Below, in pieces: positions 9,003 to 62,526 of a stretch of 64,000 nt of DNA (positions are counted from its first letter, which is position 1; each line of letters begins with the position of its first letter). Origin of the DNA: an uncultured bacterium (GTDB lineage Bacteria > Verrucomicrobiota > Verrucomicrobiia > Limisphaerales > UBA8199); assembly GCA_963749495.1 (NCBI GenBank), contig CAVVMW010000021.1, positions 1 through 64,000 of the forward strand, in the 5' to 3' direction. The translations under genes and the position numbers were made by a program. A model generated the notes under the pieces. The model had not been told where the DNA came from, ran no database searches, and saw only the letters and a list, made by a program, of their open reading frames with translations.

Positions 9003-9128
9003 AAATGAATGACGAATGACGAATGACGAATGACGAATGACAAACGAAGGGACCGGCGCCCGCAGCGCCTCCGGCGGACCAACAACCGCGCCCTTCGTCA
9101 TTCGTCATTCGTCATTCGTCATTCATTT
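9003..9128. repeat. Heptamer-armed hairpin element (GAATGAC)x5 - core - (TTCGTCA)x4
   Basis: Inverted tandem arrays with CGAAGGG/CCCTTCG inner stem. Confidence 0.92.
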
Positions 9129-13199: not shown

Positions 13200-13303
13200 C
13201 GACCTTTGTCGCGACCTTCGTCGCATCCTTTGTCGGATCGGGCGCTTTTCGACAAAGGTCTCGAGGAAGTTTTCATCCCGGCAGGGTTCTGGGACGGGCT
13301 GCA
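13200..13303. repeat. 12-mer (ACCTTTGTCG..) / (CGACAAAGG) inverted array, family B
   Basis: Same motif at about 14908, 37955, 47406 and 56458. Confidence 0.8.
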
Positions 13304-14907: not shown

Positions 14908-14980
14908 ACCTTTGTCGCAACCTTTGTCGCGACCTTTGTCGAGGCATGGCCAACCCGACAAAGGTTTCGACAAAGGTCCG
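14908..14980. repeat. Family B 12-mer inverted array
   Basis: (cctttgtcg)x3 ... (cgacaaagg)x2. Confidence 0.8.
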
Positions 14981-27942: not shown

Positions 27943-28090
27943 AAGGCTAGAATAAAGGCTAAAGGCTAAAGGCTAAAGGCTAAAGTGGCGAAAGGGACGA
28001 TTGAGAACACCCCTTTGATGTCCGCCCTCCCTTCGCTACTTTAGCCTTTAGCCTTCAGCCTTCAGCCTTTCCCCTCAGCCTTCAGCCTTT
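27943..28090. repeat. (AAAGGCT)n - 55-bp core - (TAGCCTT/CAGCCTT)n hairpin element
   Basis: Core 27985-28039 matches 42372-42426 in reverse orientation. Confidence 0.9.
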
Positions 28091-37925: not shown

Positions 37926-38066
37926 ACTGCACCGGACTTTGAGTGACTTCGGTATCTTTGTCGCAGCCTTTGTCGGAGCCTTTGTCGAGTTCAGCCGGAT
38001 TTCGACAAAGGTTTCGACAAAGGCTGCGACAAAGGTCGTGAAAGTCATTCAAAGTCCGGTGCAGTA
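37926..38066. repeat. Family B 12-mer array inside TIR TACTGCACCGGACTTTGA...TCAAAGTCCGGTGCAGTA
   Basis: Perfect 18-bp terminal inverted repeats around the array. Confidence 0.85.
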
Positions 38067-41076: not shown

Positions 41077-42363
41077 ATGAGCACTTCACATTGGACCAGC
41101 CGCAGCCGAGTTCAGGCCGCGCTCAACCATCAACAGCCCGACTGTGTCCCGATGGATTTCAGCGGCACGGCGGTGACGGGCATCCATGTCTCGGCGGTGA
41201 CGCGGTTGCGGCGCCGGTTGCTGGGCGAGCCGGACTACCGGGTGCGGGTGATCGAGCCTTACCAGATGCTGGGCGAACTGGATGACCGGCTGCGCGCCGC
41301 GCTGGGCATCGATGTGATTGGGGTAACCCCGCGCAAGTCCATGTTCGGCACCGAGTCCAAGGACTGGAAGCCCTTCACGCTCTTCGACGGCACCGAGTGC
41401 TTGGTGCCGGGCCAATTCAACGTCACCCGCGCCGAGGACGGCGGCTGGCTCATCTACCCGGAGGGCGACACCAGCGCGCCGCCCCGGGGCCACATGCCGC
41501 AGGGCGGTTATTTCTGCGACACGATCGTTTACCAGGAACCGATCGACGAGGCAAAGCTCGACCCGCAGGACAACCTCGAGGAGTTCGGCCTGCTGAGCGA
41601 GGCCGACCTGGCCTACTTCCGCGACAAAAAGCAGTGGGTGCAGGCCCGCCCCGATTACGGCTGCATCCTGACCATCCCCGGCGCAGGTTTCGGCGACATT
41701 GCCCAGGTCCCTGCCCCCTGGCTCAAGCGTCCCAAGGGCATCCGCGACATCTCGGAGTGGTATGTCTCGACCAAGACGCGCCGCGATTATGTGTACGCCG
41801 TCTTCGAGCGCCAGTGCGCCATTGCCCTCGAAAACACCAAGACCCTCATCGACCTGTTCGGCGGCCTCGTCCAAGCGGCCTGGATTACCGGCACCGATTT
41901 CGGCACGCAGCGCGGGCCGTTCATCTCCTGCCAGGCCTACCGCGACCTGTTCAAGCCGTTTCACAAGCAGATGGCCCAGCTCATCCATCGCCGCTCCAAC
42001 TGGAAGGTCTTCATTCATTCCTGCGGCTCGGTCTTCGCGCTCATCCCCGACTTCATCGAGGCCGGCTTCGACATCCTCAACCCGGTCCAATGCTCCGCCG
42101 CCGAGATGGACGCCGCCCGGCTCAAGCGCGAGTTCGGCAAGGACATCGTGTTTTGGGGCGGGGGCGTGGACACGCAGCAGACGATGCCCTTCGGCACGCC
42201 GGAGCAGGTTTATCGCCAGGTGCGCGAGCGAATCGGGCTCTTCAATGCAGGCGGCGGTTTTGTTTTCAACTCCGTCCACAATCTCCAGGGCAACACCCCG
42301 CTGGAGAACCTCGAGGCACTCTTCCGGGCGGTGCGGGAGGAAAAGCTAAAGGCTAAAGGCTAA
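41077..42363 (+). CDS. Uroporphyrinogen decarboxylase-like / MtaA-type methyltransferase family protein
   Basis: DFGTQ, FIHSCG, LNPVQ, FWGGGVDTQ and HNLQ motifs. Confidence 0.88.
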   Translation: MSTSHWTSRSRVQAALNHQQPDCVPMDFSGTAVTGIHVSAVTRLRRRLLGEPDYRVRVIEPYQMLGELDDRLRAALGIDVIGVTPRKSMFGTESKDWKPFTLFDGTECLVPGQFNVTRAEDGGWLIYPEGDTSAPPRGHMPQGGYFCDTIVYQEPIDEAKLDPQDNLEEFGLLSEADLAYFRDKKQWVQARPDYGCILTIPGAGFGDIAQVPAPWLKRPKGIRDISEWYVSTKTRRDYVYAVFERQCAIALENTKTLIDLFGGLVQAAWITGTDFGTQRGPFISCQAYRDLFKPFHKQMAQLIHRRSNWKVFIHSCGSVFALIPDFIEAGFDILNPVQCSAAEMDAARLKREFGKDIVFWGGGVDTQQTMPFGTPEQVYRQVRERIGLFNAGGGFVFNSVHNLQGNTPLENLEALFRAVREEKLKAKG

Positions 42364-42443
42364 AGGCTAAAGTGCGGAAGGGAGGGCGGACCTCAAAGGG
42401 GTATTCTCAATCGTCCCTTTCCGCACTCTAGCCTTTAGCCTTT
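42344..42443. repeat. (AAAGGCT)n - core - (TAGCCTT)n hairpin supplying both convergent stop codons
   Basis: Stops at 42361-63 and 42428-30 both lie in repeat units. Confidence 0.9.
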
Positions 42444-42784
42444 TTGTCAATTGTTGTGAAAATGGCGATCAACTGGTGGGTCTCGTCGAGGAGATCGGCC
42501 ATCCTGGGTGCGGGGACGCAACCGCTATCAACGAGCAGTTCGAGCCAATACTCGGTTTCATCGATTTCCTTGAGGCAGTGGCCGATCTTGGAAATGAATT
42601 CGCTCTTGGATCGGGCGCGCGCTGCCTCGCGATAGTTGGCGCCTACCGAAGTTGCGGAGCGCAGGACCTGTTTACCGAGCACCTGCGCCACCGTATCATT
42701 CTTTGGCAGCTTTGAATACATCCGAATGACTCGGAGCGCGAAGGCCTTCGTTCTCGGTTTCAGTTCCTGTGGTTGGTCATTCAT
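42428..42784 (-). CDS. Four-helix-bundle protein (23S rRNA IVS protein / Avd-like family)
   Basis: RTKAFAL..., QVLRSATSVGANYREA, FISK..., KE..ET.YWLELL motifs. Confidence 0.92.
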   Translation of the reverse strand: MNDQPQELKPRTKAFALRVIRMYSKLPKNDTVAQVLGKQVLRSATSVGANYREAARARSKSEFISKIGHCLKEIDETEYWLELLVDSGCVPAPRMADLLDETHQLIAIFTTIDKKAKG

Positions 42785-42881
42785 AGGCAGGAATGCTAAG
42801 GGTAGGAGGCGAGAAAGCCAACTCCGGAGGCTGACAGCTAAAGGCCCGCGTGCCTGTCAGGTGCCGCACCGCGCTCCGCCA

Positions 42882-42907
42882 CTTTAGCCTTTAGCCTTTA
42901 GCCTTTT
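42882..42907. repeat. (TTAGCCT)x3 run upstream of the four-helix gene, supplying the stop of the next gene
   Basis: ctttagcctttagcctttagcctttt. Confidence 0.8.
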
Positions 42908-45104: not shown

Positions 45105-47599
45105 TTACTGCCCCGGCGCGACGACTTCGAAGGGGATGGCGGGCAGGGTGCCGATGGGGAAACGGCGGCGGTTGGCGGGGGCCTTTTTGCCGGCTGCGGG
45201 CTGGGCATTCTCGGCAAAGGCATTGACGATGAGATTGCCGGCCAGGCCGGGTTTGGCCTTGGCTGCGTCGCAGGCCAGGACCAGTTCCGAGTCCTGATCT
45301 GCGGAGACCACGTCACGGAGGACAATCCCGTCCGGAGGTTGGCTCAGCTCGAACTGGGCCTTGCCAAAGAAGGCCGCGAGAGCGCGGGAAAGCGGGACAC
45401 GCACGCTGCCGCCGGCGGGGAGTCGGACCAGGTCGGGTCTTTGGAATGTGGCCCTGGGCCGTGGGCGGCCAATGACCGCGGCCTGGAGTTCCTGGGCCGG
45501 GACCAGGTGGTGGTAGGCGAAGGCCTGCATCATATCGTCTGCGGGCACGGCCGGGCGGATGACCCTGCGGCCAGCGATGGTGGCCCGCCCTTGGATGGAG
45601 AGGGTGAACGGTTCATCGCTGGGCATTGGCGGGGCGGTGAGCGTGAGGCGGATCTGGTCCTGGCCGGCGGGCACACGGGCGCCACTCAGGGCGAACCCGG
45701 CGGGGGCGTCCTTGAGGGCGAGGGTGATTTCGTTGGTAAACCCGTCTTTGCGCAGCGCATAGACTGTGATCGGGATAGTCGCGCCGGCGCGGAGCGTCAG
45801 GCTGGAGGGGACGACCCGCAGCGCGAAATCGGGCTGGGGATCGCTCAGGCGCAGGCGATACGTGTAGTCCGGGCCGCCTTTGTGCTGGGCGTCGCCCAGA
45901 TGGAGGAAGTAGGTCCCGTCGGCCGGCAGAACGGCCGTTAGATACGAATCGGCGTGGTGCGTGCTGAGGCCCGAACCTTTGTCCTCGAAATCGTCATTGA
46001 AGGCAAGCTGGCGCCCGGTGGCATCGGTCAGCTTGAGCACTGAATCGAGCGGCGAGTCGAGCCGCCGCGCGCAGACTTCGGCCACGACCTGCTCACCGGC
46101 GTGTCCATCGAAGTGGAACAGGTCCCAGTCGCCCGGCGGGTCGATGCGCCCATTGACGATGATGGGGAGGGTGAGCGGTTGGGCGCTCTGCGGGGTGTTG
46201 TTGGGCTCGAGTTCCCGGGTCTCGGGCAAGGTGTCTGCCGCGAACGGAACGAGATTGGAAACCCACTCGCCGTTGCGCACCGAGAGCCAGTGAGTCCCCG
46301 GCTCGTTGAATGAGACGCTGAGCTTGCCGGCAGGCAAGTTCCATCCGGTGACTTCGATGCTGGTCTGGGCGCCGGCCGGGCCACCGAGCGGGAAGATGCC
46401 CGTCACAAAGGGCAACTCGCCGATGGCGATGCGATAGACAAAATCCTCGCGTCCGCGGTAGAGGGCGTCCTTGATGGCGATGGCATACTCGCCGTCCTTG
46501 GGGACTTTGTAGAACAGGACCGGGTCGGGGTGGAAGCGATAGTTATCTTCGTAGGCCAACTCCTTGCCGTGGGAATCGTAGAGCGTCAAGGCGGCCTGGA
46601 ACCACCCGGGCACGGCGTCGGCCAGGTAAGGGATCAACTCCCGCGCGCTGACGGCGATGACCAACTGCTGGCCTGCACGAGCGTGAAAGCGGTAGCGGTC
46701 GACTTGGCCCGGCAGGATTTGGCCGTTGATGACCGCCGGGAGGGTCACGGGCATATCGACCGGCGGTGTGTCGGGGCGTCCGTTGTTGCCTCGGGCCGGC
46801 CTCGGCAAGGGCGGCTGGGCGGGCTCAGGCCGTTTCTGCCGCAACTCGGGGAGCAGGCCCACGCGGAAGAGCAGGGGATTGGAGAGCCCGGTTGCGGTGC
46901 GCAGGCGCAACTCCCGAGTGCCCGGCTCAGCCTCCGCCGCAACGGCAACTTCGAGGCTGACTGTCTCAGCGATCGCGGGATTAGCCGAGCGCCGCTGGAA
47001 GGCAGCCAGTTTCTTGAGGATCTCCTGCACCATTTGCCGGTCCTCGGCGGTCCAGGTGACGTTGGTCGAGCCTGGCTTCTCGGCGGCGTCGGGGCGCTTG
47101 TTGTCCAAAGCGCGCGCGCGCTTGTCCCGCAGTTCTTTGAGTTTCTCTCGCAGGTCGTTGGCCTGTTTGGGGGTCAGCGGCTTCTCCTGCCGGAGGAGGG
47201 TGGCGCGCAGGCTGGCCCGGAGAAATTGGCGTTGGTTGCCCCGTCGAGGAACTGGCCGCCGACGGTCACTTGGAAGGTGGCGCCCTGGCGTCCGCCGGCG
47301 GGATAGACATAGCCGATGTGGGGCGGTGCCGGCTGGCCGTGGGCGGCAAGGCACAGAGCGAGGCAACAGAGAGCGGCGCCAAGGCCGCGCAAGACCACAA
47401 ACGGAGGACCTTTGTCGAAACCTTTGTCGAAACCTTTGTCGAAACCTTTGTCGAAACCTTTGTCGCAGCCTTTGTCGAAACCTTTGTCGGATCGGCCATT
47501 TTTCGACAAAGGCTGCGACAAAGGTGCCGACAAAGGTCCGGACTTGGACCCCCGGCGGCCATCTTTCAACCCTCCGCGCTGAGGCGGATGGGCCCTCAT
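45105..47599 (-). CDS. Secreted PPC-domain (pre-peptidase-like) protein, frameshift near 47222
   Basis: PHIGYVYPAGGRQG in one frame; EPNNT, NGRID...DLF and DSVLKL PPC repeats in the other; ATGA-coupled to DUF1501. Confidence 0.78.
47406..47540. repeat. Family B 12-mer array (seven plus three units) within the PPC gene 5' end
   Basis: (ACCTTTGTCGAA)n ... (CGACAAAGG)n. Confidence 0.9.
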
Positions 47600-48939: not shown

Positions 48940-48999
48940 ATCAGGACACTGCTAATTGCAGTTATTCAGACGCTTGCCCAAGAGCGAATGTTACAGCAG

Positions 49000-49421
49000 G
49001 ATCATGGAAGAAAGAATCATCAGAAACAGAATCATTTTTGGCAGAACAGAGAGATGCATTGGGCCTGGGATTCATGATGGGTTTGCTTTTCCGAGGTCTT
49101 GCTCCTTACCGTGAAAATGTCCGGAATTCAATTCGCGCATGGTTCAGATTCACCCACTGGAGAAACGGGAGCCTGGTGTGCGCCAGGAACCGGCGTTGGT
49201 GTTGCGCCGCACGATCATGGAAGAAAGAATCATCAGAAACAGAATCATTTTTGGCAGAACGGAGAGATGCATCGGGCCTGGGATTCATGATGGGTTTGCT
49301 TTTCCGAGGTCTTGCTCCTTACCGTGAAAGTGTCCGGAATTCAATTCGCGCATGGTTCAGATTCACCCACTGGAGAAACGGGAGCCTGGTGTGCGCCAGG
49401 AACCGGCGTTGGTGTTGCGCC
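49000..49421. repeat. 209-bp tandem duplication (period 213) of the GxxExxY gene 3' end
   Basis: 49000-49208 versus 49213-49421, three substitutions seen. Confidence 0.9.
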
Positions 49422-54261: not shown

Positions 54262-54494
54262 CGAATGACGAATGACGAATGACGAATGACGAATGCGTCG
54301 GCTATCGGCTATTGTCTATCGGCTATCTGGCGCGAATGACGAATGACGAATGACGAATGCGTCGGCTATCGGCTATTGTCTATCGGCTATCTGGCGCGAA
54401 TGACGAATGACGAATGACGAATGACGAATGACGAACGCAGAGGGCCTTCTTCCCATGATTTTGCCACCCATGATTTTGCCTTCCCTGATTTTGC
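54262..54494. repeat. Higher-order array of GAATGAC and GCTATCG heptamers plus a 15-mer (CCATGATTTTGCC) x3
   Basis: Composite unit duplicated in tandem. Confidence 0.9.
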
Positions 54495-54515: not shown

Positions 54516-56297
54516 ATGCGAACACTCGCTTCACTGCTGCTGGTTTGCCTGGCCGCCGGTTGTGCCAGGATGTCTCCCTCGACCGGCCGGGACGCGGCCG
54601 GCGCCGACGCCGCCTTCACACAGTTGGCCGAGGAGTATCTCTCCGGCTACCTCGCCTGGCGTCCGCAGACCGGCACGGCGCTCGGGTTTCACCAGTATGA
54701 TGGGAAGCTCACCGATTACAGCCCCATCTCGCTCCAGACCGAATTGGCCCGGCTCAAATCGTTCGACTCGAGGCTGGCGGGGCTGAACACCAGCCGGCTG
54801 GGCCCGCGCGCCTTTCACGATTACCGCATCCTGCGCGCGGCCATCCAGCGGGAAATCTTCAGCTTCGACCGGATGCGGGTCTTTTGGCAAAACCCGATGA
54901 CCTACGCCGGCGCCCTGGACGTGAGCGTCTATATCAAGCGCGACTTTGCGCCGCTCCAGGAGCGGGTCGGCTCGATCCTGGGCCTTCTGGACCAGGCGCC
55001 GGCGCTCTTCGGGGCGGCGCGGGCCAACTTGGCCGACTCGCTGCCGCGCCCGCAAATCGAGACCGCCATCGAACAGGCGGAGGGCGCCGCGGAGTTCCTG
55101 GCCAAAGACCTGGTCCAGGCACTCAAGGACGTGAAAAACCCCGGGCTCATGGAGCAATTCAACGCGTCCAACCAGCGCGCCATCCAGGCCCTGCGCGACT
55201 ACGCCGCCTGGCTCAAGGAGCAGAAGCTGCCCAAGGCCAACGACCGCTACGCCCTGGGCCGCGAGAAATACATGGAACTGCTCCAATACGGCGAGTTAGT
55301 GAGTGCCTCGCCGGAGCGATTGCTGGAGATCGGCCTGCGCGAGTTGCGCCGCCAGCAGGAGGTCTTTGCCAGCGCCGCCCGGCAGATCGATCCGGCCCGC
55401 AAGCCCACGGAGGTGTTCCAGGCCATCCAACGCGACCATCCCACCGAGCAGAGCCTCATTGCCGACACGGCGCGAGACCTCGAGAGCATCCGCCGGTTCC
55501 TGGTCCAGCGCCGCCTGATCACCCTGCCTTCACAAGTCCGCCCGCAAGTGGCCGAGACCCCGCAGTTCCTGCGCGCCACCAGCTTCGCCTCGATGGACAC
55601 GCCCGGCCCGTTCGAGACCCGGGCCACCGAGGCCTACTATTACGTCACGCCCGTGGAACCCGATTGGACGCCTGCCCAGAAAGACGAATGGCTCACTGCC
55701 TTCAACTACTACACCACCAACGTGGTCTCCATCCACGAGGTCTATCCGGGCCACTATGTCCAGTTCCTCTGCCTGAAGGCCTCGCCGGCCGGCAAGGTCG
55801 AGAAGATCTTCTCCAGCTATGCCTTTGTCGAGGGCTGGGCCCATTACGCCGAGCAAATGATGCTCGATGAAGGCTTCGGCCGGGGCGGCGCCGCAATCGC
55901 CCAACGCGAGGACTTGGTCCGCGCGGCCAAATACCGCATGGCCCAGGCCGACGAAGCCCTCCTGCGCGTCTGCCGGCTCTGCGTCTCCATCCAAATGCAC
56001 TGCCAGGGCATGACCGTGGACCAGGCCGCCCAATTCTTCCAGGACAATTGCTATTACCAGCCAAAACCCTCGCGCGCCGAGGCCGTGCGCGGCACCTTCG
56101 ACCCCGAATACCTCTATTACACGCTGGGCAAGATGGAACTGCTCAAGCTGCGCGACGACTGCCGCAAACAGGAGGGCGCGGGCTTCACGCTCCAAAAATT
56201 CCACGACGAACTCCTGCGCCACGGCGCGCCCCCGGTCCGCTTGCTGAGGGAAATCATGCTCAAAGACAGAGCCGCGTGGGACCAGGCCATCGAATAG
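54516..56297 (+). CDS. DUF885-family lipoprotein
   Basis: Lipobox LAAGC, HEVYPGH, EGWAHYAE and YYTLGK motifs. Confidence 0.9.
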   Translation: MRTLASLLLVCLAAGCARMSPSTGRDAAGADAAFTQLAEEYLSGYLAWRPQTGTALGFHQYDGKLTDYSPISLQTELARLKSFDSRLAGLNTSRLGPRAFHDYRILRAAIQREIFSFDRMRVFWQNPMTYAGALDVSVYIKRDFAPLQERVGSILGLLDQAPALFGAARANLADSLPRPQIETAIEQAEGAAEFLAKDLVQALKDVKNPGLMEQFNASNQRAIQALRDYAAWLKEQKLPKANDRYALGREKYMELLQYGELVSASPERLLEIGLRELRRQQEVFASAARQIDPARKPTEVFQAIQRDHPTEQSLIADTARDLESIRRFLVQRRLITLPSQVRPQVAETPQFLRATSFASMDTPGPFETRATEAYYYVTPVEPDWTPAQKDEWLTAFNYYTTNVVSIHEVYPGHYVQFLCLKASPAGKVEKIFSSYAFVEGWAHYAEQMMLDEGFGRGGAAIAQREDLVRAAKYRMAQADEALLRVCRLCVSIQMHCQGMTVDQAAQFFQDNCYYQPKPSRAEAVRGTFDPEYLYYTLGKMELLKLRDDCRKQEGAGFTLQKFHDELLRHGAPPVRLLREIMLKDRAAWDQAIE

Positions 56298-56400
56298 TGC
56301 GGAGTGCGGAGTGCGGAATGCGGAATCCTTCGGAGGAAGGGAGACGGAGGGTGGAGGGCGGAATGACGAATGACGAATGACGAATGACGAATGACGAATG
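56298..56400. repeat. Composite heptamer element, family E: (GTGCGGA)n - core - (GAATGAC)n
   Basis: Same modules at 62347-62526 and inverted inside the polymerase gene. Confidence 0.9.
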
Positions 56401-56426
56401 AGCCCGCAGTCAGTAGTCAGTAGCTA

Positions 56427-56567
56427 GAGCCTGTCCCCAAAGCCCCGCGAGTGGGGGACCTTTGTCGCAGCCTTTGTCGAAACCTTTGTCGGATTGGCCC
56501 TTTTTCGACAAAGGCGCCGACAAAGGCTGCGACAAAGGTTCGGAACCAGGGCTTTTGGGACAGGCTC
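56427..56567. mobile_element. MITE-like element: TIR GAGCCTGTCCC.AAAGCCC enclosing a family B array
   Basis: About 19-bp terminal inverted repeats. Confidence 0.75.
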
Positions 56568-56619
56568 CAGCCACTGACTCCCTCGGTTTTTTTATTGTTG
56601 ACAAGCGCGGCCTTCATAT

Positions 56620-56633
56620 TGGACACTTGTTCA
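56620..56633. promoter_or_regulatory. Candidate LexA operator (TGGACA-CT-TGTTCA)
   Basis: Imperfect palindrome 2 nt before the lexA ATG; TTGACA at 56598-56603. Confidence 0.45.
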
Positions 56634-56635
56634 GT

Positions 56636-57268
56636 ATGAAGGAACTGACGAAGAGACAACGCCAGGTCCTGGAGTTCATCCAGGACCGCCAGGATGCAGC
56701 GGGCCTCGTTCCGACCTACCGCGAGATAGCCGCGCATTTCGGTTTCAACAGTCCGAACGCAGTGCTGGCGCACGTCAAGGCCCTGCAGAGCAAGGGGTTT
56801 TTGAAAAACCAGCCGGGCCGCGCCCGGACTTTCCAGGTGATGAATCCCAGCGCGCCGAGGCACCGGTTGCGGCCGCGCATCCTCTCGGTGCCCATCTACG
56901 GCACCATCCCTGCCGGTGTCCCGATCGAGGCCGTCCAGGAAGACGAGGGGTGCGTGCTGATCGACGTGGAGACGCTGGGGATTCGGCCGAGCGCCCGCAC
57001 CTTTGGCTTGAAGGTCCGGGGCGATTCCATGCTCGGCAAGAACATCGTGGACGGCGACATCGCCATCATCGAGCATGGCCTGGCGCCGCGTCCCGGCGAC
57101 GTGGTGGCCGCGCTCATCAACGGGCAGGTCACGCTCAAGACTTTTGTCGTGCAGCGGGGCAAGGCATTTTTGCGCGCGGAAAATCCCCGCTATTCGAACC
57201 TGGTCCCCCAGGAAGAACTGCAAGTCCAGGGCGTTATGGTGGCCCTGGTGCGCAGGCGGAAAGGCTAA
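56636..57268 (+). CDS. lexA: LexA repressor
   Basis: LTKRQ..VL.FI wHTH, PTYREIA, Ala-Gly cleavage site IPAG, catalytic GDSM and TLK. Confidence 0.93.
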   Translation: MKELTKRQRQVLEFIQDRQDAAGLVPTYREIAAHFGFNSPNAVLAHVKALQSKGFLKNQPGRARTFQVMNPSAPRHRLRPRILSVPIYGTIPAGVPIEAVQEDEGCVLIDVETLGIRPSARTFGLKVRGDSMLGKNIVDGDIAIIEHGLAPRPGDVVAALINGQVTLKTFVVQRGKAFLRAENPRYSNLVPQEELQVQGVMVALVRRRKG

Positions 57269-57510
57269 AGGCTGAAGGCTAAAGGCTAAAGGTGAGGGAC
57301 GAATGACAAATGACAAATGACAAATGACGAATGACGAATGACGAAGGGGGGCCGAGCAGGGAAGGGCGCGAAGCGTTTTGGACTGGCGCAGTCCAAAACC
57401 TGGCGGCCTGGATACCGAGTGCCGACGGGCGCCGCCTCGTCTCCGCTTCGTCATTCGTCATTTGTCATTCGTCATTCGTCATTCGACCCTCGTCTCTCGA
57501 CCCTCGGCCC
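57260..57510. repeat. Stacked repeats between lexA and the polymerase gene
   Basis: (AAGGCT)x4, (RAATGAC)x6, short family D palindrome, (TTCGTCA)x5, (TCGACCC-like)x4. Confidence 0.88.
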
Positions 57511-57518
57511 TCTTCGCC

Positions 57519-60500
57519 ATGACGGAATCTCGACAGCGGGCCAGAGCGATCGTGCATCTGGATGCGGATGCGTTTTTCGCCTCGGTAGAGCAGGCGGCGG
57601 ACGCGCGGCTGCGCGGCAGGCCCGTGGCTGTGGGGGGCGACAAGCGCGGCATCATTGCCTCGGCCTCCTACGAGGCGCGCAAGTTTGGCATTTACACGCC
57701 CATGCCCACCGCCCTGGCGCGCCGGCTCTGCCCCAGGCTGGTGCTCCTGCCGGGCGACTTCGACAAGTATGAGCTCTTTTCGCGGCTGATGTTTTCGTAT
57801 GCCTACGATTTCACGCCGGACGTGGAGATCGGCTCGATTGACGAGGGATATTTCGATTTGACGGGGTCGCGGCGGCCGGCGCTGAGCATTGCCGAGACGA
57901 TCCGGCAGGCGATCCGGCAGGCGCTCCGGCTGTCGGTCAGCGAGGGCATCGCTGCCAACAAACTGGTCAGCCAGATCGCCTCGAAGCTGAACAAACCCGC
58001 GGCGTTTCAATTCGTGCCGGGCGGGCAGGAGGGGCAATTTTTGGCGCCGCTGGCCAACCAATGGCTGCCGGGAATCGGCCCCCGGACGGCGGCGCAGTTG
58101 AATGCGGCCGGCCTGGCGCGCATCGGCCAGGTCGCCTGCACGCCGCTGGACCTGCTGGGGTTGCTGGTGGGCAACCAGGCGCCGCAGTTGCACCGCTTTG
58201 CCTTGGGCCAGGATGAGCGGCCGGTCATCCCGGCGCGCGCCCCGGCCAAGTCCTACGGCCAACAGGAGACCTTTGCGGCGGACACCACCGACCAAGAGTT
58301 CCTGGAGGCGGCCTTGCAGCGGATGGCGGACCACCTCATGGCCAAAGTGCGCGCGGACGGCAAGAGCATCCGCACCCTCACGGTCAAGGTCCGCTACAAC
58401 GACATGGACGAGGAGCAGGCGAGCGAGAGCCTGGCCGAGCCCACGGACCTGGAAACCGAAATCTATACCCGCGTCATCCTGCTCCTGCGCCGGGCCTGGA
58501 AACGCCGGGTCAGCCTCCGCCTGGTCTCGCTCAAGCTGGACAATGTCTATGACGGCCCTTTCCGGAGCGGGCTGGCCCTGGACACCGCCGCCCGCCGCCA
58601 CGACGCCCAGCAGCGCCTGGCCGGCGCAGTCGATCAGTTACGCGAAAAATATGGCCGCAGCGCCCTCCTCCGGGGACACGACTTCGTCTTAGCCGAGTCA
58701 GTCCACAGTCCAGAGTCCACAGTCCACAGTCCACAGTCCGGAAGCCGGAACGCGGAGGACGGAAGACGGAGGACGGAAGACGGAGGGCGGAAGACGGAAT
58801 GCGGACTCCGGACTCGGGAATTTGAGATCTCGGATCTGAAATCTGATATCCGGACTGTGGACTGTGGACTGTGGACTGTGGACCGTGGACTGACTCTGGA
58901 CTGTGGACTACCCCTGAACGTCCACAGTTATTATTCGTTTCTGGATTCCACGCTTTCGATCCGGGCGGTGGTGGATTGGGCCAAACGGCACGAGCTGCCG
59001 GCCATTGCGCTGACCGACCGCAACAACCTGCACGGGGCGGTGGAGTTTGCCCAGGCAGCCGCCGAGGCGGGGATTAAGGCGATTATCGGGGCTGAACTCG
59101 CCTGGCAGGGGCGGCGCGTCTGCCTCTACGTCCAGGACCAGACGGGCTACCGCAATCTCTGCGGCATCTTGAGCGCCAAGACAGCGCGAGGTGGCGAAGA
59201 GGACTCGCCGGGAACGATTGGAGGCCAATACAAGAGACAAAAAGGACAACAGGGACGCCAGGATGCCGACTCAGCGGCAGCCCGGGAGATGAAGATGGAT
59301 TTTCAGGGCAATGTCCGCGCTCCGTTGCGGGCTCCCGCAATTTTCGATTCGCCGGAGCACACCGCCGGTCTGCTGGCGGTGAGCCCCTGTGCCGAACTGG
59401 CCCGGTTTTTTCCCGGCCGGTTCTACCTGGCGGTCGAGAATCCCGATGCCCTGGGCGGGAGGACCGTTCCCCTGCCTTGCGTGCCCTGGTTGCCGGTCCA
59501 TTACGAGCAGCCTGCCGACCGCTGGAAGTACGACGTGGTGCAAAGCATCCGCACGCTGACCCTGCTCCGGCAGCAGCATCCCCAAAAGCGGCTGGGAGGC
59601 GAATATCATTTCCGGTCCGGCGCGGAGCTGCAGCGGCTCTTCGGCGCCCGGCCGGAATGGCTCCAACACAGCCATGAGATTGCCGACCGCTGCCAGTTCG
59701 CCTTCCGCCTGGGCAAACCGCAGTTCCCCGCCTACGCCCCGGCGGACGGCTCGACACCGGCCGCCTTTCTGCGCCGGTTGGCGCTGGAAGGGCTGCAACG
59801 CCGTTACCCCACCGAGCACGCCCGCCTCAAACCCCAGCTCGAAGAGGAGCTGCTCATCATCACCGAGGTCGGCTACGAGGAATACTTCCTGGTCATGTGG
59901 GACATCCTGCAGGAATGCCTGCGGCGCGCCATCCACTGGATCACGCGCGGCAGCGCCGCCGATTCCCTCGTCTGCTATTGCCTGGGCATCAGCGACGTTT
60001 GCCCCATCCGCTTCGATCTCTACTTCCGCCGTTTCCTCAACAAAGAGCGCATGGCGCTCAGCAAGCTGCCCGACATCGATGTGGATTTCGCGCACGACCG
60101 CAAGGACGACGTGCTCGATCTGATCTTCGAAAAATACGGTCCGGCGCACGCGGCCATTGTGGGCGGCTTCTCCACGTTTCAATCGCGCAGCGCCTTTGCC
60201 GAAGCGGCCAAAGTGCTGGGGGTCTCCGAATTCCAGGTCCGCCGCATCACCGAGCGGCTGCCGCATTTCTCGCGCGCCTCCGAGCTGGCCCAAGCCGCCG
60301 CCGCCACCCTCGAGTGCCGCGATTTGCCGCTGGACCAGGAGCCCTACGCCAGCGCGCTGCGGATGGCGCGATTTCTCGACGGCTTTCCCCGCTACCCCAA
60401 GATGCACCCGTGCGGGCTGGTGCTCTCGCGCCAGGCCATGTCCGAAATCACCCCCTGCTTCGTCTCCGCCAAGGGCTATCCCACCACGCACTTCGACATG

Positions 60501-62423
60501 GACTCGGTCGAGGCCGTGGGGTTGATCAAGATGGACATCCTCGCCCAGGGCGGCCTGGCGGTCATGCGCGATGTGTTGGCCGAAGTTAGTCCAGAGTCCA
60601 GAGTCCAGAGTCCACAGTCCGGATATCAGATTTCAGATCCGAGATCTCAAATTCCAGAGTCCGGAGTCCGCACTCCGCATTCGCCATTCGTCATTCGTCA
60701 TTCGTCATTCCCCCCTCCGCCATCCGTCTCCCTTCCTCCGAAGGACTCCGCATTCCGCACTCCGCACTCCGCATTGGCGGACCCGGAGGTCTGGGAGATG
60801 ATCGCCGGGGGCCACGCCCGCGCGGTGCATCACATCGAGAGCCCGGCCATGGTATCGCTCTGCAAAATGTGCGGCGTGCGGGACATTGACACGCTCATCG
60901 CCATCGTCTCGGTGATTCGCCCCGGCGCGGCCAACGAGAGCAAGAAGATGGAATTTGCGCGGCGCTACCAGGGCCTGACCCCGGTGCGCTATGCGCATCC
61001 GTCGCTGGAGCCGTGCCTGCGCAGCACTTACGGCCTGGTGGTCTATGAAGAGCATATCCTGCAGATCTGCGAGGCCTTCGCCGGCCTGCCGCCGGGCCGG
61101 GCGGACGTCCTGCGCCGGGCGCTGGGCAAAGAGAAGGAGGGCCTGATTGCGCAGATCCAGGGTGAGTTCGCCCAGTGCGCCCGGCGGCGCGGCCGCACCG
61201 AGGCCCAGATTACGGAGGTGTGGGGGCTGGTGGCCGGTTTTCGAGGCTATGCCTTCTGCAAGGCGCACAGCACCGCTTACGGCGTCGAGGCCTATCAATC
61301 GGCCTGGCTCAAGCGGTATTACCCGGCCCAGTTCATGGCCGCGGTCCTCACCAACGGCAAAGGCTTTTATGACCCGCTGGTCTATGTGCTCGAATGCCAT
61401 CGGCTGGGCATTTCGCTGCTGCCGCCCTCGGTCAACGACCCCGGCCCGCAATTCAGGGTGCGCGAGGGCAAGATCCGCGTGCCGCTCCTGCGGGTCAAAG
61501 GGCTGACCGGCCGCACTTCTGAAACCATCCTGGCCGAGCGCGACCGCGACCGGTTTTCGTCGCTGCCCGATTTCCTGCTCCGCGTCCAGCCGCTCCCGCA
61601 AGAGATGGAGGCGCTCATCCGGGTGGGGGCCTTCGATGAGTTCGGCAAATCCCGCACGACGCAGGTACCTGGGAATTCAAATCGCTCTGTGCGCAGTCCA
61701 GAGTCAGTCCACAGTCCACAGTCCACAGTCCAGAGTCCACAGTCCACAGTCCAGAGTCCACAGTCCACAGTCCAGAGTCCACAGTCCGGATATCAGATTT
61801 CAGATCCGAGATCTCAAATTCCAGAGTCCGGAGTCCGCACTCTGCATTCGTCATTCGTCATTCGTCATTCGTCATTCCGCCCTCCACCCCCCGCCAGCCT
61901 CTGGCTGTTCCCACCGGGAAACCTCGACCATTTGCCTTCCGTCCCGCTGTCGGAACCCAATCGGCTGCAACGGCTGCGCTGGGAGGAAGAGTTGCTGGGC
62001 TTCCCCGCGAGCGGCCATCCGCTGGAGTTGTTTCCCGATGTGGCCTGGGACACCTATTGTCCCGTCTGCCGGCTCGGCCAGCACGTGGGCCAGCAGGTGG
62101 TCACTTGCGGCCTGGTCATCGAGCAGCGCCTCTTTCACCAGACCACCGGCGAGCCGATGAAGTTCCTGACCCTGGCCGATTGGACCGGCATGGTGGAGAC
62201 CGAACTCTTCGCCCGCACCTACCGCTCCTACGGCCTGAACACGATCCGCTACCGCGTCCTGGAAATCTCGGCCACAGTCGAGCCGTTTGAAAACGGGCGC
62301 GGCTATACCCTGCGCGTGCTCCGGGCGGGCAAGGCGAGGGGGAGGGAATGCGGAGTGCGGAGTGCGGAGTGCGGAGTGCGGAATCCTTCGGAAGGAGGGA
62401 GACGGGGAACGAATGACGAATGA
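57519..62423 (+). CDS. DinB (Y-family) - DnaE2-like (C-family, PHP/Pol/OB) fusion polymerase with in-frame repeat inserts
   Basis: HLDADAFFASVE, ASYEAR, SIDEGY and NKLVSQIAS; then HSYYSFLDS, RGSAA, PDIDVDF, KMDIL, GYAFCKAH and OB-fold MKFLTLADWTG, all in one ORF. Confidence 0.88.
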   Translation: MTESRQRARAIVHLDADAFFASVEQAADARLRGRPVAVGGDKRGIIASASYEARKFGIYTPMPTALARRLCPRLVLLPGDFDKYELFSRLMFSYAYDFTPDVEIGSIDEGYFDLTGSRRPALSIAETIRQAIRQALRLSVSEGIAANKLVSQIASKLNKPAAFQFVPGGQEGQFLAPLANQWLPGIGPRTAAQLNAAGLARIGQVACTPLDLLGLLVGNQAPQLHRFALGQDERPVIPARAPAKSYGQQETFAADTTDQEFLEAALQRMADHLMAKVRADGKSIRTLTVKVRYNDMDEEQASESLAEPTDLETEIYTRVILLLRRAWKRRVSLRLVSLKLDNVYDGPFRSGLALDTAARRHDAQQRLAGAVDQLREKYGRSALLRGHDFVLAESVHSPESTVHSPQSGSRNAEDGRRRTEDGGRKTECGLRTREFEISDLKSDIRTVDCGLWTVDRGLTLDCGLPLNVHSYYSFLDSTLSIRAVVDWAKRHELPAIALTDRNNLHGAVEFAQAAAEAGIKAIIGAELAWQGRRVCLYVQDQTGYRNLCGILSAKTARGGEEDSPGTIGGQYKRQKGQQGRQDADSAAAREMKMDFQGNVRAPLRAPAIFDSPEHTAGLLAVSPCAELARFFPGRFYLAVENPDALGGRTVPLPCVPWLPVHYEQPADRWKYDVVQSIRTLTLLRQQHPQKRLGGEYHFRSGAELQRLFGARPEWLQHSHEIADRCQFAFRLGKPQFPAYAPADGSTPAAFLRRLALEGLQRRYPTEHARLKPQLEEELLIITEVGYEEYFLVMWDILQECLRRAIHWITRGSAADSLVCYCLGISDVCPIRFDLYFRRFLNKERMALSKLPDIDVDFAHDRKDDVLDLIFEKYGPAHAAIVGGFSTFQSRSAFAEAAKVLGVSEFQVRRITERLPHFSRASELAQAAAATLECRDLPLDQEPYASALRMARFLDGFPRYPKMHPCGLVLSRQAMSEITPCFVSAKGYPTTHFDMDSVEAVGLIKMDILAQGGLAVMRDVLAEVSPESRVQSPQSGYQISDPRSQIPESGVRTPHSPFVIRHSSFPPPPSVSLPPKDSAFRTPHSALADPEVWEMIAGGHARAVHHIESPAMVSLCKMCGVRDIDTLIAIVSVIRPGAANESKKMEFARRYQGLTPVRYAHPSLEPCLRSTYGLVVYEEHILQICEAFAGLPPGRADVLRRALGKEKEGLIAQIQGEFAQCARRRGRTEAQITEVWGLVAGFRGYAFCKAHSTAYGVEAYQSAWLKRYYPAQFMAAVLTNGKGFYDPLVYVLECHRLGISLLPPSVNDPGPQFRVREGKIRVPLLRVKGLTGRTSETILAERDRDRFSSLPDFLLRVQPLPQEMEALIRVGAFDEFGKSRTTQVPGNSNRSVRSPESVHSPQSTVQSPQSTVQSPQSTVQSPQSGYQISDPRSQIPESGVRTLHSSFVIRHSSFRPPPPASLWLFPPGNLDHLPSVPLSEPNRLQRLRWEEELLGFPASGHPLELFPDVAWDTYCPVCRLGQHVGQQVVTCGLVIEQRLFHQTTGEPMKFLTLADWTGMVETELFARTYRSYGLNTIRYRVLEISATVEPFENGRGYTLRVLRAGKARGRECGVRSAECGVRNPSEGGRRGTNDE
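58695..58909. repeat. Family E element forming the DinB-PHP linker
   Basis: (TCCACAG)n ... (GGAAGAC)n ... (CTGTGGA)n. Confidence 0.9.
60588..60775. repeat. Family E element inside the polymerase core
   Basis: Reverse complement of 62347-62526. Confidence 0.92.
61695..61890. repeat. Family E element before the OB fold
   Basis: (TCCACAG/TCCAGAG)n-GATATCAGATTTCAG...-(TTCGTCA)n. Confidence 0.92.
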
Positions 62424-62526
62424 CGAATGACGAATGCGGGGTGCAGACTCCGGACTCTGGAATTTGAGATCCGGGATCTGAAATCTGATATCCGGACTGT
62501 GGACTGTGGACTGTGGACTGTGGACC
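62347..62526. repeat. Family E element spanning the polymerase stop codon
   Basis: The ORF runs into the element and ends at a GAATGA unit. Confidence 0.92.

Follow-up and report, generated by a model that had tools for sequence, protein, structure and literature searches.

General Features of the Locus

The sequence analyzed here, called the window throughout, is a stretch of 64,000 nucleotides (nt) from an uncultured member of the Verrucomicrobiota (Limisphaerales; UBA8199), positions 1–64,000 of contig CAVVMW010000021.1 in GCA_963749495.1. The assembly (G000) is a draft of 11.37 Mb in 31 contigs, 88% complete and with 5.8% contamination. Downstream of a complete lexA gene, the window encodes a single chain of 1,634 amino acids (aa) in which a DinB-like Y-family DNA polymerase is followed by a short C-family DNA polymerase. 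A preliminary description of this DNA had proposed a frame of about that length (57519–62423) behind a complete lexA, and both the open-frame listing and the LexA model TIGR00498 bear it out. The features of the locus are as follows.

56617..56636 (+): candidate SOS (LexA) box TATTGGACACTTGTTCAGTA, whose last base is the A of the lexA ATG; from a palindrome found de novo in kin
56636..57268 (+): lexA, complete, 210 aa; LexA_DNA_bind 1–65 and Peptidase_S24 86–202 (Pfam); TIGR00498
57260..57512 (+): intergenic heptamer hairpin, (GACGAAT)n facing (ATTCGTC)n, between lexA and the fusion (TRF)
57519..62423 (+): fused polymerase gene; ATG start, 1,634 aa plus stop (open-frame listing, domain profiles, relatives)
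57558..58547 (+): Y-family core and little finger; IMS aa 14–156 (1.9e-42) and IMS_C aa 244–343 (Pfam)
58599..58685 (+): RecA-NT-like motif, aa 361–389, putatively mimicking the N-terminal helix of RecA
58695..58910 (+): inter-polymerase linker, aa about 393–464; in-frame composite heptamer-array element with inverted arms (sequence, TRF)
58914..59213 (+): PHP domain, aa 466–565 (Pfam); metal site degenerate, NVH for HxH and TDRN for TDH
59766..60545 (+): C-family palm; DNA_pol3_alpha aa 750–1009, 1.7e-64 (Pfam); catalytic D852, D854, and D1006
60588..60773 (+): second in-frame heptamer insert, in the palm-to-fingers loop (TRF)
60774..61661 (+): fingers and HhH; finger aa 1086–1224 and HHH_6 aa 1297–1381 (Pfam)
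61694..61877 (+): third in-frame heptamer insert, in the HhH-to-OB linker, in place of a conserved Q-Y/F-W-E motif
61896..61916 (+): candidate beta-clamp-binding motif SLWLFPP, between HhH and OB (homolog alignment)
62097..62330 (+): C-terminal OB-like region; PF01336 E 0.035, 14.5 bits versus a cut-off of 27
62345..62436 (+): 3'-end heptamer arrays, which leave the protein about 20 aa longer than those of relatives

The open frame itself runs from 57378 to 62423 (+) and amounts to 1,681 aa when counted from an upstream TTG; the 47 codons between this TTG and the ATG at 57519 are translated heptamer array. ATG 57519 is the likely start of the gene, because homologs align to the fusion only from residue 4–9 counted from it. 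The database copy of the protein (P0003, 1,623 aa) is 11 residues shorter than the product counted from this ATG, which sits 250 nt 3' of lexA. The lexA product scores 153.4 bits against a TIGR00498 cut-off of 110.95 and gives the single PF00717 match in the whole assembly, so that lexA is the only S24 peptidase gene found there. The genes flanking the lexA–fusion pair, for a DUF885 protein and a GFO/IDH/MocA oxidoreductase, are both unrelated.

Two Polymerase Domains in One Frame

Hidden Markov model scans place IMS, IMS_C, PHP, and DNA_pol3_alpha in the fusion, all above their Pfam cut-offs, and the four motifs that the preliminary description had read from the translation were all located: HLDADAFF (aa 13–20), SIDE (aa 106–109), PDIDVD (aa 851–856), and KMDIL (aa 1004–1008). 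The catalytic residues of the Y-family half are D15, D108, and E109, with F19/F20 as the steric gate. Conservation was scored in an alignment of 30 fused homologs, 64–81% identical to the window copy and with a mean column identity of 56%. D15, D17, F19, F20, S106, I107, D108, and E109 are invariant in all 30, as are D852, D854, and D1006 of the palm. The earlier reading of an intact DinB-type Y-family half thus agrees with the catalytic Asp/Asp/Glu and steric-gate Phe, and that of a PHP domain and C-family palm in the second half with the Pfam calls and the three palm aspartates. Canonical ImuB had been described as lacking catalytic residues; this is the case for the ImuB proteins of R. etli p42f (L111) and a B. 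glumae plasmid (L112), in which DADAFF and SIDE are absent, whereas R. etli DinB and the PolY proteins of split Verrucomicrobiota pairs (see below) retain these columns. The fusion passes the DinB equivalog PRK02406 marginally (257.4 bits versus a cut-off of 256) and scores under the cut-offs of the remaining DinB models; the closest solved structure to the Y-family half is 7yll_A, "DNA polymerase IV" (1.3e-54).

G000 also has two full DinB-size genes, on contigs C14 and C7, and three truncated Y-family fragments (C24:274798–275115, C10:671533–671757, and C9:3492–3677) that cover IMS positions 1–107, 1–74, and 7–66, respectively; the C9 fragment contains a stop.

The C-family half opens with a PHP domain in which the first His position of the metal site varies across homologs. 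The main text of PMC12926913 gives a criterion for an active PHP metal site, and by that rule the site of the fusion is, judged by its residues, inactive, because it is incomplete. An OB domain had also been claimed; what was detected is an OB-like region that falls below the Pfam cut-off and is highly conserved among homologs, whose C-termini lie 10–25 aa past LRVLRAGKPR. The fusion ends shortly past this region, and the tau-binding C-terminal domain is absent. Neither the DnaE model NF004226 (608 bits versus a cut-off of 1002) nor the error-prone DnaE2 model NF004225 (478.5 versus 939) is passed. PF07733 finds two genes in G000, the fusion and a DnaE1 on contig C12; a replicative DnaE1 role was rejected on the grounds of that separate DnaE1, the failed NF004226 model, and the missing tau-binding domain.

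Unfused relatives of the C-family half were sought in a library of 1.84 billion representatives. The nearest are 974–1,161 aa long and 34–55% identical; among 40 representatives scanned, none passes the DnaE2 model and 10 (1,074–1,298 aa) pass the DnaE1 model. A tree of 56 rows (IQ-TREE quick, LG+G4, SH-aLRT only, with DnaE1 assumed as the outgroup and canonical DnaE2 references drawn from plasmid records) sets DnaE1 (10 rows, SH-aLRT 99) apart from 46 short enzymes. The canonical DnaE2 proteins of R. etli and B. glumae form a clade of four rows (99), and every fused form belongs to its sister, a clade of 42 rows (100). The 12 fused rows all fall inside a 15-row clade (100) along with the split G045/P0127 and with P0125. 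Split G045 nests among the fused forms, and split G044 lies outside them, a position as would be expected for the ancestral two-gene state. The fused state costs two changes on this tree and may have had one origin. On present sequence evidence, the C-family half is not DnaE1, nor is it canonical ImuC; it sits in a sister clade of short DnaE2-like enzymes. The earlier label "DnaE2-like" therefore stands in the sense of a sister of canonical ImuC/DnaE2 and fails in the sense of ImuC itself, by both NF004225 and the tree.

A Putative RecA-Docking Motif and a Variable Tether

Residues 361–389 of the fusion are similar to the N-terminal helix of the genome's own RecA, and this RecA-NT-like motif is conserved in 30 of 30 homologs; RecA-NT motifs in the tails of Y-family proteins are described in the main text of PMC6511836. 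A complex of the genome's RecA with fusion residues 240–400 was modeled, with an ipSAE of 0.77 versus 0.00 for the best of three controls, at least 94% of contacts common to the runs, and a partner pLDDT of at least 82; the contacts place fusion residues 360–393 on RecA 125–176. Of 157 solved complexes, 116 attain the same mark, as do 2 of 215 mismatched pairs. The model supports the predicted docking of RecA on the motif.

The linker that follows is unconserved, ranging from about 28 to 148 aa across the 30 homologs, and same-genus genomes have unrelated sequence at its position. A peptide of the approximate form V-x-R-Q-R-L-G-x-S ... PPEA ... SPG-x-E-x-R-F, absent from the window, recurs in the linkers of 8 of the 30 homologs (P0020, P0043, P0052, P0086, P0093, P0101, P0105, and P0122) and also in locus L028; either a linear motif or a translated mobile element could account for it.

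Most homologs have QLWL[LF]P or QGWL[LF] where the window copy reads SLWLFPP, and the Gln of the first column, Ser in the window, is at least 90% conserved. We take the QLWL[LF]P-type peptide to be a candidate clamp-binding motif, going by the consensus QLxLF.

Conservation and Distribution of the Fusion

Forty relatives' genomes were compared by fusion protein and read from the resulting table as three groups. One open frame of 1,389–1,797 aa spans both halves in 24 of them; the fusion gene is cut by contig ends in 7; and no fusion ortholog was found in the other 9, where DinB or DnaE1 paralogs give the best matches (E about 1e-38 to 1e-54). Related loci were taken as the best 80 of 434 confirmed loci in a contig collection. 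The best matches to PolY and DnaE lie within one open frame in 67 of these 80 and in different frames in two (L028 and L066); three loci are cut by contig ends (L077, L082, and L087), and eight have a PolY-only frame of 387–425 aa, four of them with 4 kb of downstream DNA without DnaE and another (L068) reaching the contig end. Carriers of the fusion include the cultured Limisphaera sp. VF-2 and Prosthecobacter fluviatilis KACC 12649, as well as complete chromosomes of metagenome-assembled genomes.

A search of a collection of 5.8 billion proteins gave 8,000 scored candidates, of which 1,687 match the fusion at E ≤ 1e-10. The best 120 are 1,385–1,826 aa long, carry IMS and DNA_pol3_alpha together in 119 cases, and go by such names as "DNA polymerase IV," "Pol III alpha," and "error-prone DNA polymerase." The phylum was sampled more broadly with 401 evenly drawn genomes, few of them from the window's own order, and a close PolY ortholog (E ≤ 1e-60) is present in 48. 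This sample includes fused frames in three genomes of other families (G037, G214, and G381), adjacent split genes in two (G045 and G044), and a stand-alone PolY of about 400 aa in one family (f22), where 34 of 35 genomes have it.

Full-length fusions are common among Verrucomicrobiota genomes, and the surmise that database homologs might exist proved well founded. The preliminary description had also held that homologs consisting always of two separate genes would speak against a fusion; what the loci and genomes show is one frame in most cases. This shared frame (67 of 80 loci, 24 of 40 genomes) argues that the fusion is not an artefact. The window copy departs from the homologs at 8 of 679 strongly conserved columns, tied for sixth-lowest of 30, and because so few columns depart, it shows no apparent sign of decay. 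One same-family genome (G005) appears to hold two fused copies, on C181 (1,765 aa) and C214 (1,455 aa).

Linkage to lexA and Candidate SOS Operators

An S24 gene lies directly upstream of the polymerase gene, on the same strand, in 70 of the 80 loci. A de novo palindrome search over 50 lexA-upstream regions recovered TACTGTTC-N4-GAACAGTA in kin of the window. Scored across 66 loci, the palindrome matches at 16 of 16 positions in 11, at 14 or more in 29, and at 12 or more in 48, and many of the sites sit at −19, many ending on the start codon. The candidate box of the window matches 11 of 16; its place and its inner-base variant are common to its closest relatives (L032, L077, L028, L027, L036, and L082). 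Among the 10 loci without lexA, several have the box directly before the fusion, with 16 of 16 matches in L052 and L061, 15 in L074, 14 in L073, and 12–13 in L037, L083, and L043; L047 and L078 score 10–11, and L102 has too little upstream DNA for scoring. The S24 gene upstream and the SOS box in kin uphold the proposal that the fusion is LexA-linked.

Erill et al. reportedly described a LexA motif for the Verrucomicrobia in 2016, and we take TGTTC-N4-GAACA to be that operator. No such site was found near lexA, and the window as a whole has 6 matches with at most 2 mismatches versus 16.7 expected; the palindrome of the relatives contains TGTTC-N4-GAACA within a longer palindrome. A promoter and terminator scan of 56250–57650 on the gene's strand gave no sigma-70-like promoter and no terminator (no T-run). 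Outside the window, only one other genome site closely resembles the lexA box variant (C21:499364–499383 of G000); it lies just 3' of a TTGACC hexamer.

In 17 of the 80 loci, all of the Verrucomicrobiaceae/Prosthecobacter type, the upstream gene is S24-only, about 150–173 aa long, and UmuD-like, an identity that was Pfam-checked in two of the 17. This suggests that the UmuD-like S24 protein is a Pol V-like accessory subunit of the fused polymerase. In these loci (L085, L087, L089–L092, L095–L101, and L103–L106) the S24-only gene ends 4 nt before the fusion and the SOS box lies upstream.

Heptamer Repeats

The genome holds 1,035 perfect heptamer arrays of at least three copies (91 per Mb, versus 16–53 for periods of 5, 6, 8, and 9 nt), 423 of which belong to one unit family. 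No more than 229 of the 1,035 lie deep within open frames of 400 codons or longer, and since spurious frames abound in GC-rich DNA, this figure is a ceiling. Complementary arrays face each other and would form long hairpins. We presume a likeness to the cyanobacterial STRR heptamers, and a literature search turned up no report of heptamer over-representation in Verrucomicrobiota.

The fusion gene contains four heptamer elements, in the PolY–PHP linker, the palm–fingers loop, the HhH–OB linker, and the 3' end, and none of the four is common to same-genus genomes. All three internal inserts preserve the reading frame, with no stops over 4.9 kb, and their positions coincide exactly with the three loops whose length and sequence differ in every homolog; in some homologs these loops contain other repeat-like inserts. 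The palm-to-fingers loop, for example, is unconserved at 45–163 aa among homologs, and same-genus genomes carry other inserts there. Heptamer hairpins placed in frame in the tether and loops with no loss of the core mark these segments as insertion-tolerant spacers. Between lexA and the fusion, the spacer RNA folds at −135.9 kcal/mol (z = −9.17; none of 200 shuffles as stable); in many relatives the lexA and polymerase frames instead abut or overlap.

A second repeat family in the window has a 12-nt period and consists of ACCTTTGTCGAA-like arrays facing CGACAAAGG-like arrays as inverted pairs; one of these arrays (56458–56538) lies just upstream of the lexA promoter region. Repeats found with TRF in the window include the following.

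9007–9124, 27953–28090, 42341–42906, 54262–54435, 56296–56423, 57260–57512, and 62345–62525: heptamer arrays (examples)
13200–13235, 14908–14941, 37956–38036, 47408–47537, and 56458–56538: 12-nt-period arrays
48996–49421: tandem duplication, 213-bp unit, 2.0 copies, 98% match

A Probable Single-Chain Translesion Polymerase and Its Alternatives

We consider it probable that the gene is a genuine, conserved, single-chain translesion or mutagenic DNA polymerase encoded behind lexA, and it is best matched by the predicted PolY-DnaE2-RecA mutasome in single-chain form. The protein would start with a DinB-like Y-family polymerase whose catalytic residues are intact; a RecA-NT motif and then a disordered tether would follow, and a short, non-replicative DnaE2-type polymerase would form the C-terminal part. 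The gene would be transcribed behind lexA from an SOS-box promoter, and the fusion should therefore be made after DNA damage. RecA on single-stranded DNA would dock on the RecA-NT motif, filling the place that ImuA has in the classical cassettes; the candidate clamp-binding peptide would bring the enzyme to the primer end; and the Y-family site would insert opposite the lesion, after which the tethered C-family site would extend. In evolutionary terms the protein would be the fused form of a two-gene PolY–DnaE2 module, with the tether and three further sites of the present copy made up of heptamer-repeat elements tolerated in frame. The architecture, its conservation, the synteny, and the operator motif are observed, and RecA docking is modeled; from sequence, we infer induction after DNA damage, activity of both polymerase sites, and a hand-off from insertion to extension.

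Several observations weigh against this reading. The SOS box of the window keeps only 11 of 16 consensus positions, and a genome-wide operator scan, which used a looser 12-position pattern, returned 9 matches versus about 14 expected by chance; because the matches are no commoner than chance, the operator is supported by position and kin and not by enrichment. The RecA model may have passed through likeness to solved structures of the RecA filament or Pol V. The reading of the origin of the fusion is limited by a quick LG+G4/SH-aLRT tree with an assumed DnaE1 root. A single assembly underlies the frame read through the repeat-made linker, and a search of sequencing runs for the stretch found no run above a share of 0.07 and listed no RNA run. 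Finally, the third insert changed the Gln of the QLWLF peptide to Ser and removed the Q-Y/F-W-E motif, which may weaken one interaction in this organism.

Were only one of the two sites to work, the Y-family half would be an ImuB-like scaffold or the C-family half a non-catalytic platform. Both the RecA-NT motif and the candidate clamp motif would befit a scaffold, and the Y-family protein of the classical ImuA-ImuB-DnaE2 system serves purely as one (main texts of PMC12926913 and PMC6511836). We nevertheless regard this as rather unlikely, since the Asp/Asp/Glu triad, the steric gate, and the three palm aspartates are all invariant against a 56% mean column identity, and real ImuB proteins have lost their Y-family residues; the keeping of both sets is hard to explain without catalysis. 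That the one frame yields two proteins, through an internal start, mRNA cleavage at the linker hairpin, or protease attack on the disordered linker, is quite improbable. No conserved start codon or ribosome-binding context precedes PHP, the conserved residues start at [IV]PLNVHS straight after variable sequence, and a frame open through unrelated linkers in 67 of 80 loci makes sense only with translation continuing across the linker. Such a split would suit a linker that is disordered, unconserved, and of widely varying length, and that in the window consists of inverted repeats whose RNA could fold into a hairpin; it would also suit the two-gene forms in G045 and G044.

The idea that the window copy is an assembly artefact or a decaying gene, in which four repeat insertions have left a frame open by accident, draws on the draft state and contamination of the assembly, on the four heptamer elements in or over the gene that no same-genus genome shares, and on the one insert by which a conserved motif was lost and the candidate clamp motif changed. 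Three internal inserts that are all in frame and free of stops, that are confined to the three loops variable in every homolog, and that leave the conserved columns kept as well as in other members (8 departures in 679) make it scarcely credible.

Within the preferred reading of a single-chain polymerase, we propose tentatively, and with more doubt than confidence, that the protein is an obligate two-polymerase machine working in cis, in which Y-family insertion is followed by C-family extension at the same primer end with RecA as the activating third partner. In that machine the upstream S24 protein, UmuD-like in Verrucomicrobiaceae and LexA here, may be a fourth, Pol V-style subunit. If this is true, the fusion would be the first natural single-chain inserter–extender translesion polymerase, and direct evidence that PolY and DnaE2 act as one unit in unfused systems too. 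The fusion bears on how DnaE2-type polymerases cooperate with their Y-family partners: in the classical system that partner, ImuB, is catalytically dead, and what is known of systems with two active polymerases comes solely from genome context and models. That a natural covalent fusion is kept across orders of Verrucomicrobiota, with both centers invariant, speaks for joint action of the two enzymes as a unit. Being a single protein, the fusion lends itself to expression and to mutation of each site in turn, and with P. fluviatilis KACC 12649 and Limisphaera sp. VF-2 as cultured carriers, induction, mutagenesis, and biochemistry are directly testable.

Comparison with Known Systems

A literature search found no description of a Y-family/C-family fusion. 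The main texts of PMC12926913 and PMC6511836 mention neither a fusion nor Verrucomicrobiota carriers, and the wording "fused," "fusion," or "single polypeptide" does not occur in the portions of PMC3919608 and PMC3765255 covered by the search. With homologs abundant in databases, the fusion is undescribed rather than unseen.

The Y-family half resembles DinB (Pol IV) in its marginal pass of PRK02406; DinB is a stand-alone enzyme of about 350–400 aa, whereas this half is fused. With E. coli Pol V (UmuD'2C-RecA-ATP) the fusion has in common a Y-family polymerase that binds RecA through a RecA-NT-type tail, here as a prediction, and, in the 17 Verrucomicrobiaceae-type loci, a UmuD-like S24-only protein encoded before it. 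Pol V has no second polymerase, and the upstream S24 protein of the window is a full LexA with a DNA-binding domain.

The ImuA-ImuB-DnaE2 cassettes of R. etli p42f and the B. glumae plasmid are alike in having an SOS-linked Y-family protein with a RecA-NT-like tail and a second, non-essential Pol III alpha homolog with a degenerate PHP site. They differ in several respects. The classical system includes ImuA, and over the whole genome (88% complete) the imuA model NF033429 hits only recA, at 42.4 bits versus a cut-off of 150, in accord with the earlier statement that no imuA is present. ImuB is catalytically dead, whereas the Y-family part of the fusion keeps its catalytic residues. ImuB also has an ImuB-C beta-barrel after RecA-NT, for which the shortest linkers of the fusion are too short (a judgment from length, no ImuB-C profile search having been made). 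The C-family part fails NF004225 and lies outside the clade of canonical DnaE2/ImuC, and the classical proteins are separate, whereas the Y- and C-family parts are here covalently joined. A canonical ImuB–ImuC fusion was rejected, as the Y-family residues are intact and the C-family clade is different.

An unfused analogue from another phylum is found on the mobilizable plasmid Do28_1 of Desulfosarcina ovata (L110), as an operon of lexA, DUF72, a Y-family gene, and a short DnaE-like gene; its Y-family protein does not keep the catalytic motifs.

Closest in composition is the PolY2 plus DnaE2 pair of Bacteroidetes (Cellulophaga algicola type; PMC6511836), named DnaE2B-PolY-RecA in PMC12926913, a module that the main texts of these papers present as predicted from genomes and AlphaFold. 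Going by those texts, it has in common with the present system an active-type Y-family polymerase whose tail bears a RecA-NT motif, a DnaE2-type enzyme that falls outside the group linked to ImuA/ImuB and stands beside a replicative DnaE1, and a genome without imuA or imuB in which RecA is the presumed third partner. As to DnaE2B itself, the likeness seen in our tree is solely that of a non-DnaE1 clade sister to canonical DnaE2. The polymerases of the module are separate genes of one operon, whereas here they form one polypeptide with a disordered tether.

The split pairs of other Verrucomicrobiota provide the nearest two-gene counterpart. In G045 (507 and 1,049 codons) and G044 (407 and 1,106 codons) the genes are adjacent and in the same order as in the fusion, and the halves are orthologous to it, with identities of 58% and 51%, respectively, for PolY and 47% and 40% for DnaE. 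These pairs consist of two frames with a stop after the RecA-NT tail, the point at which the fusion reads on.

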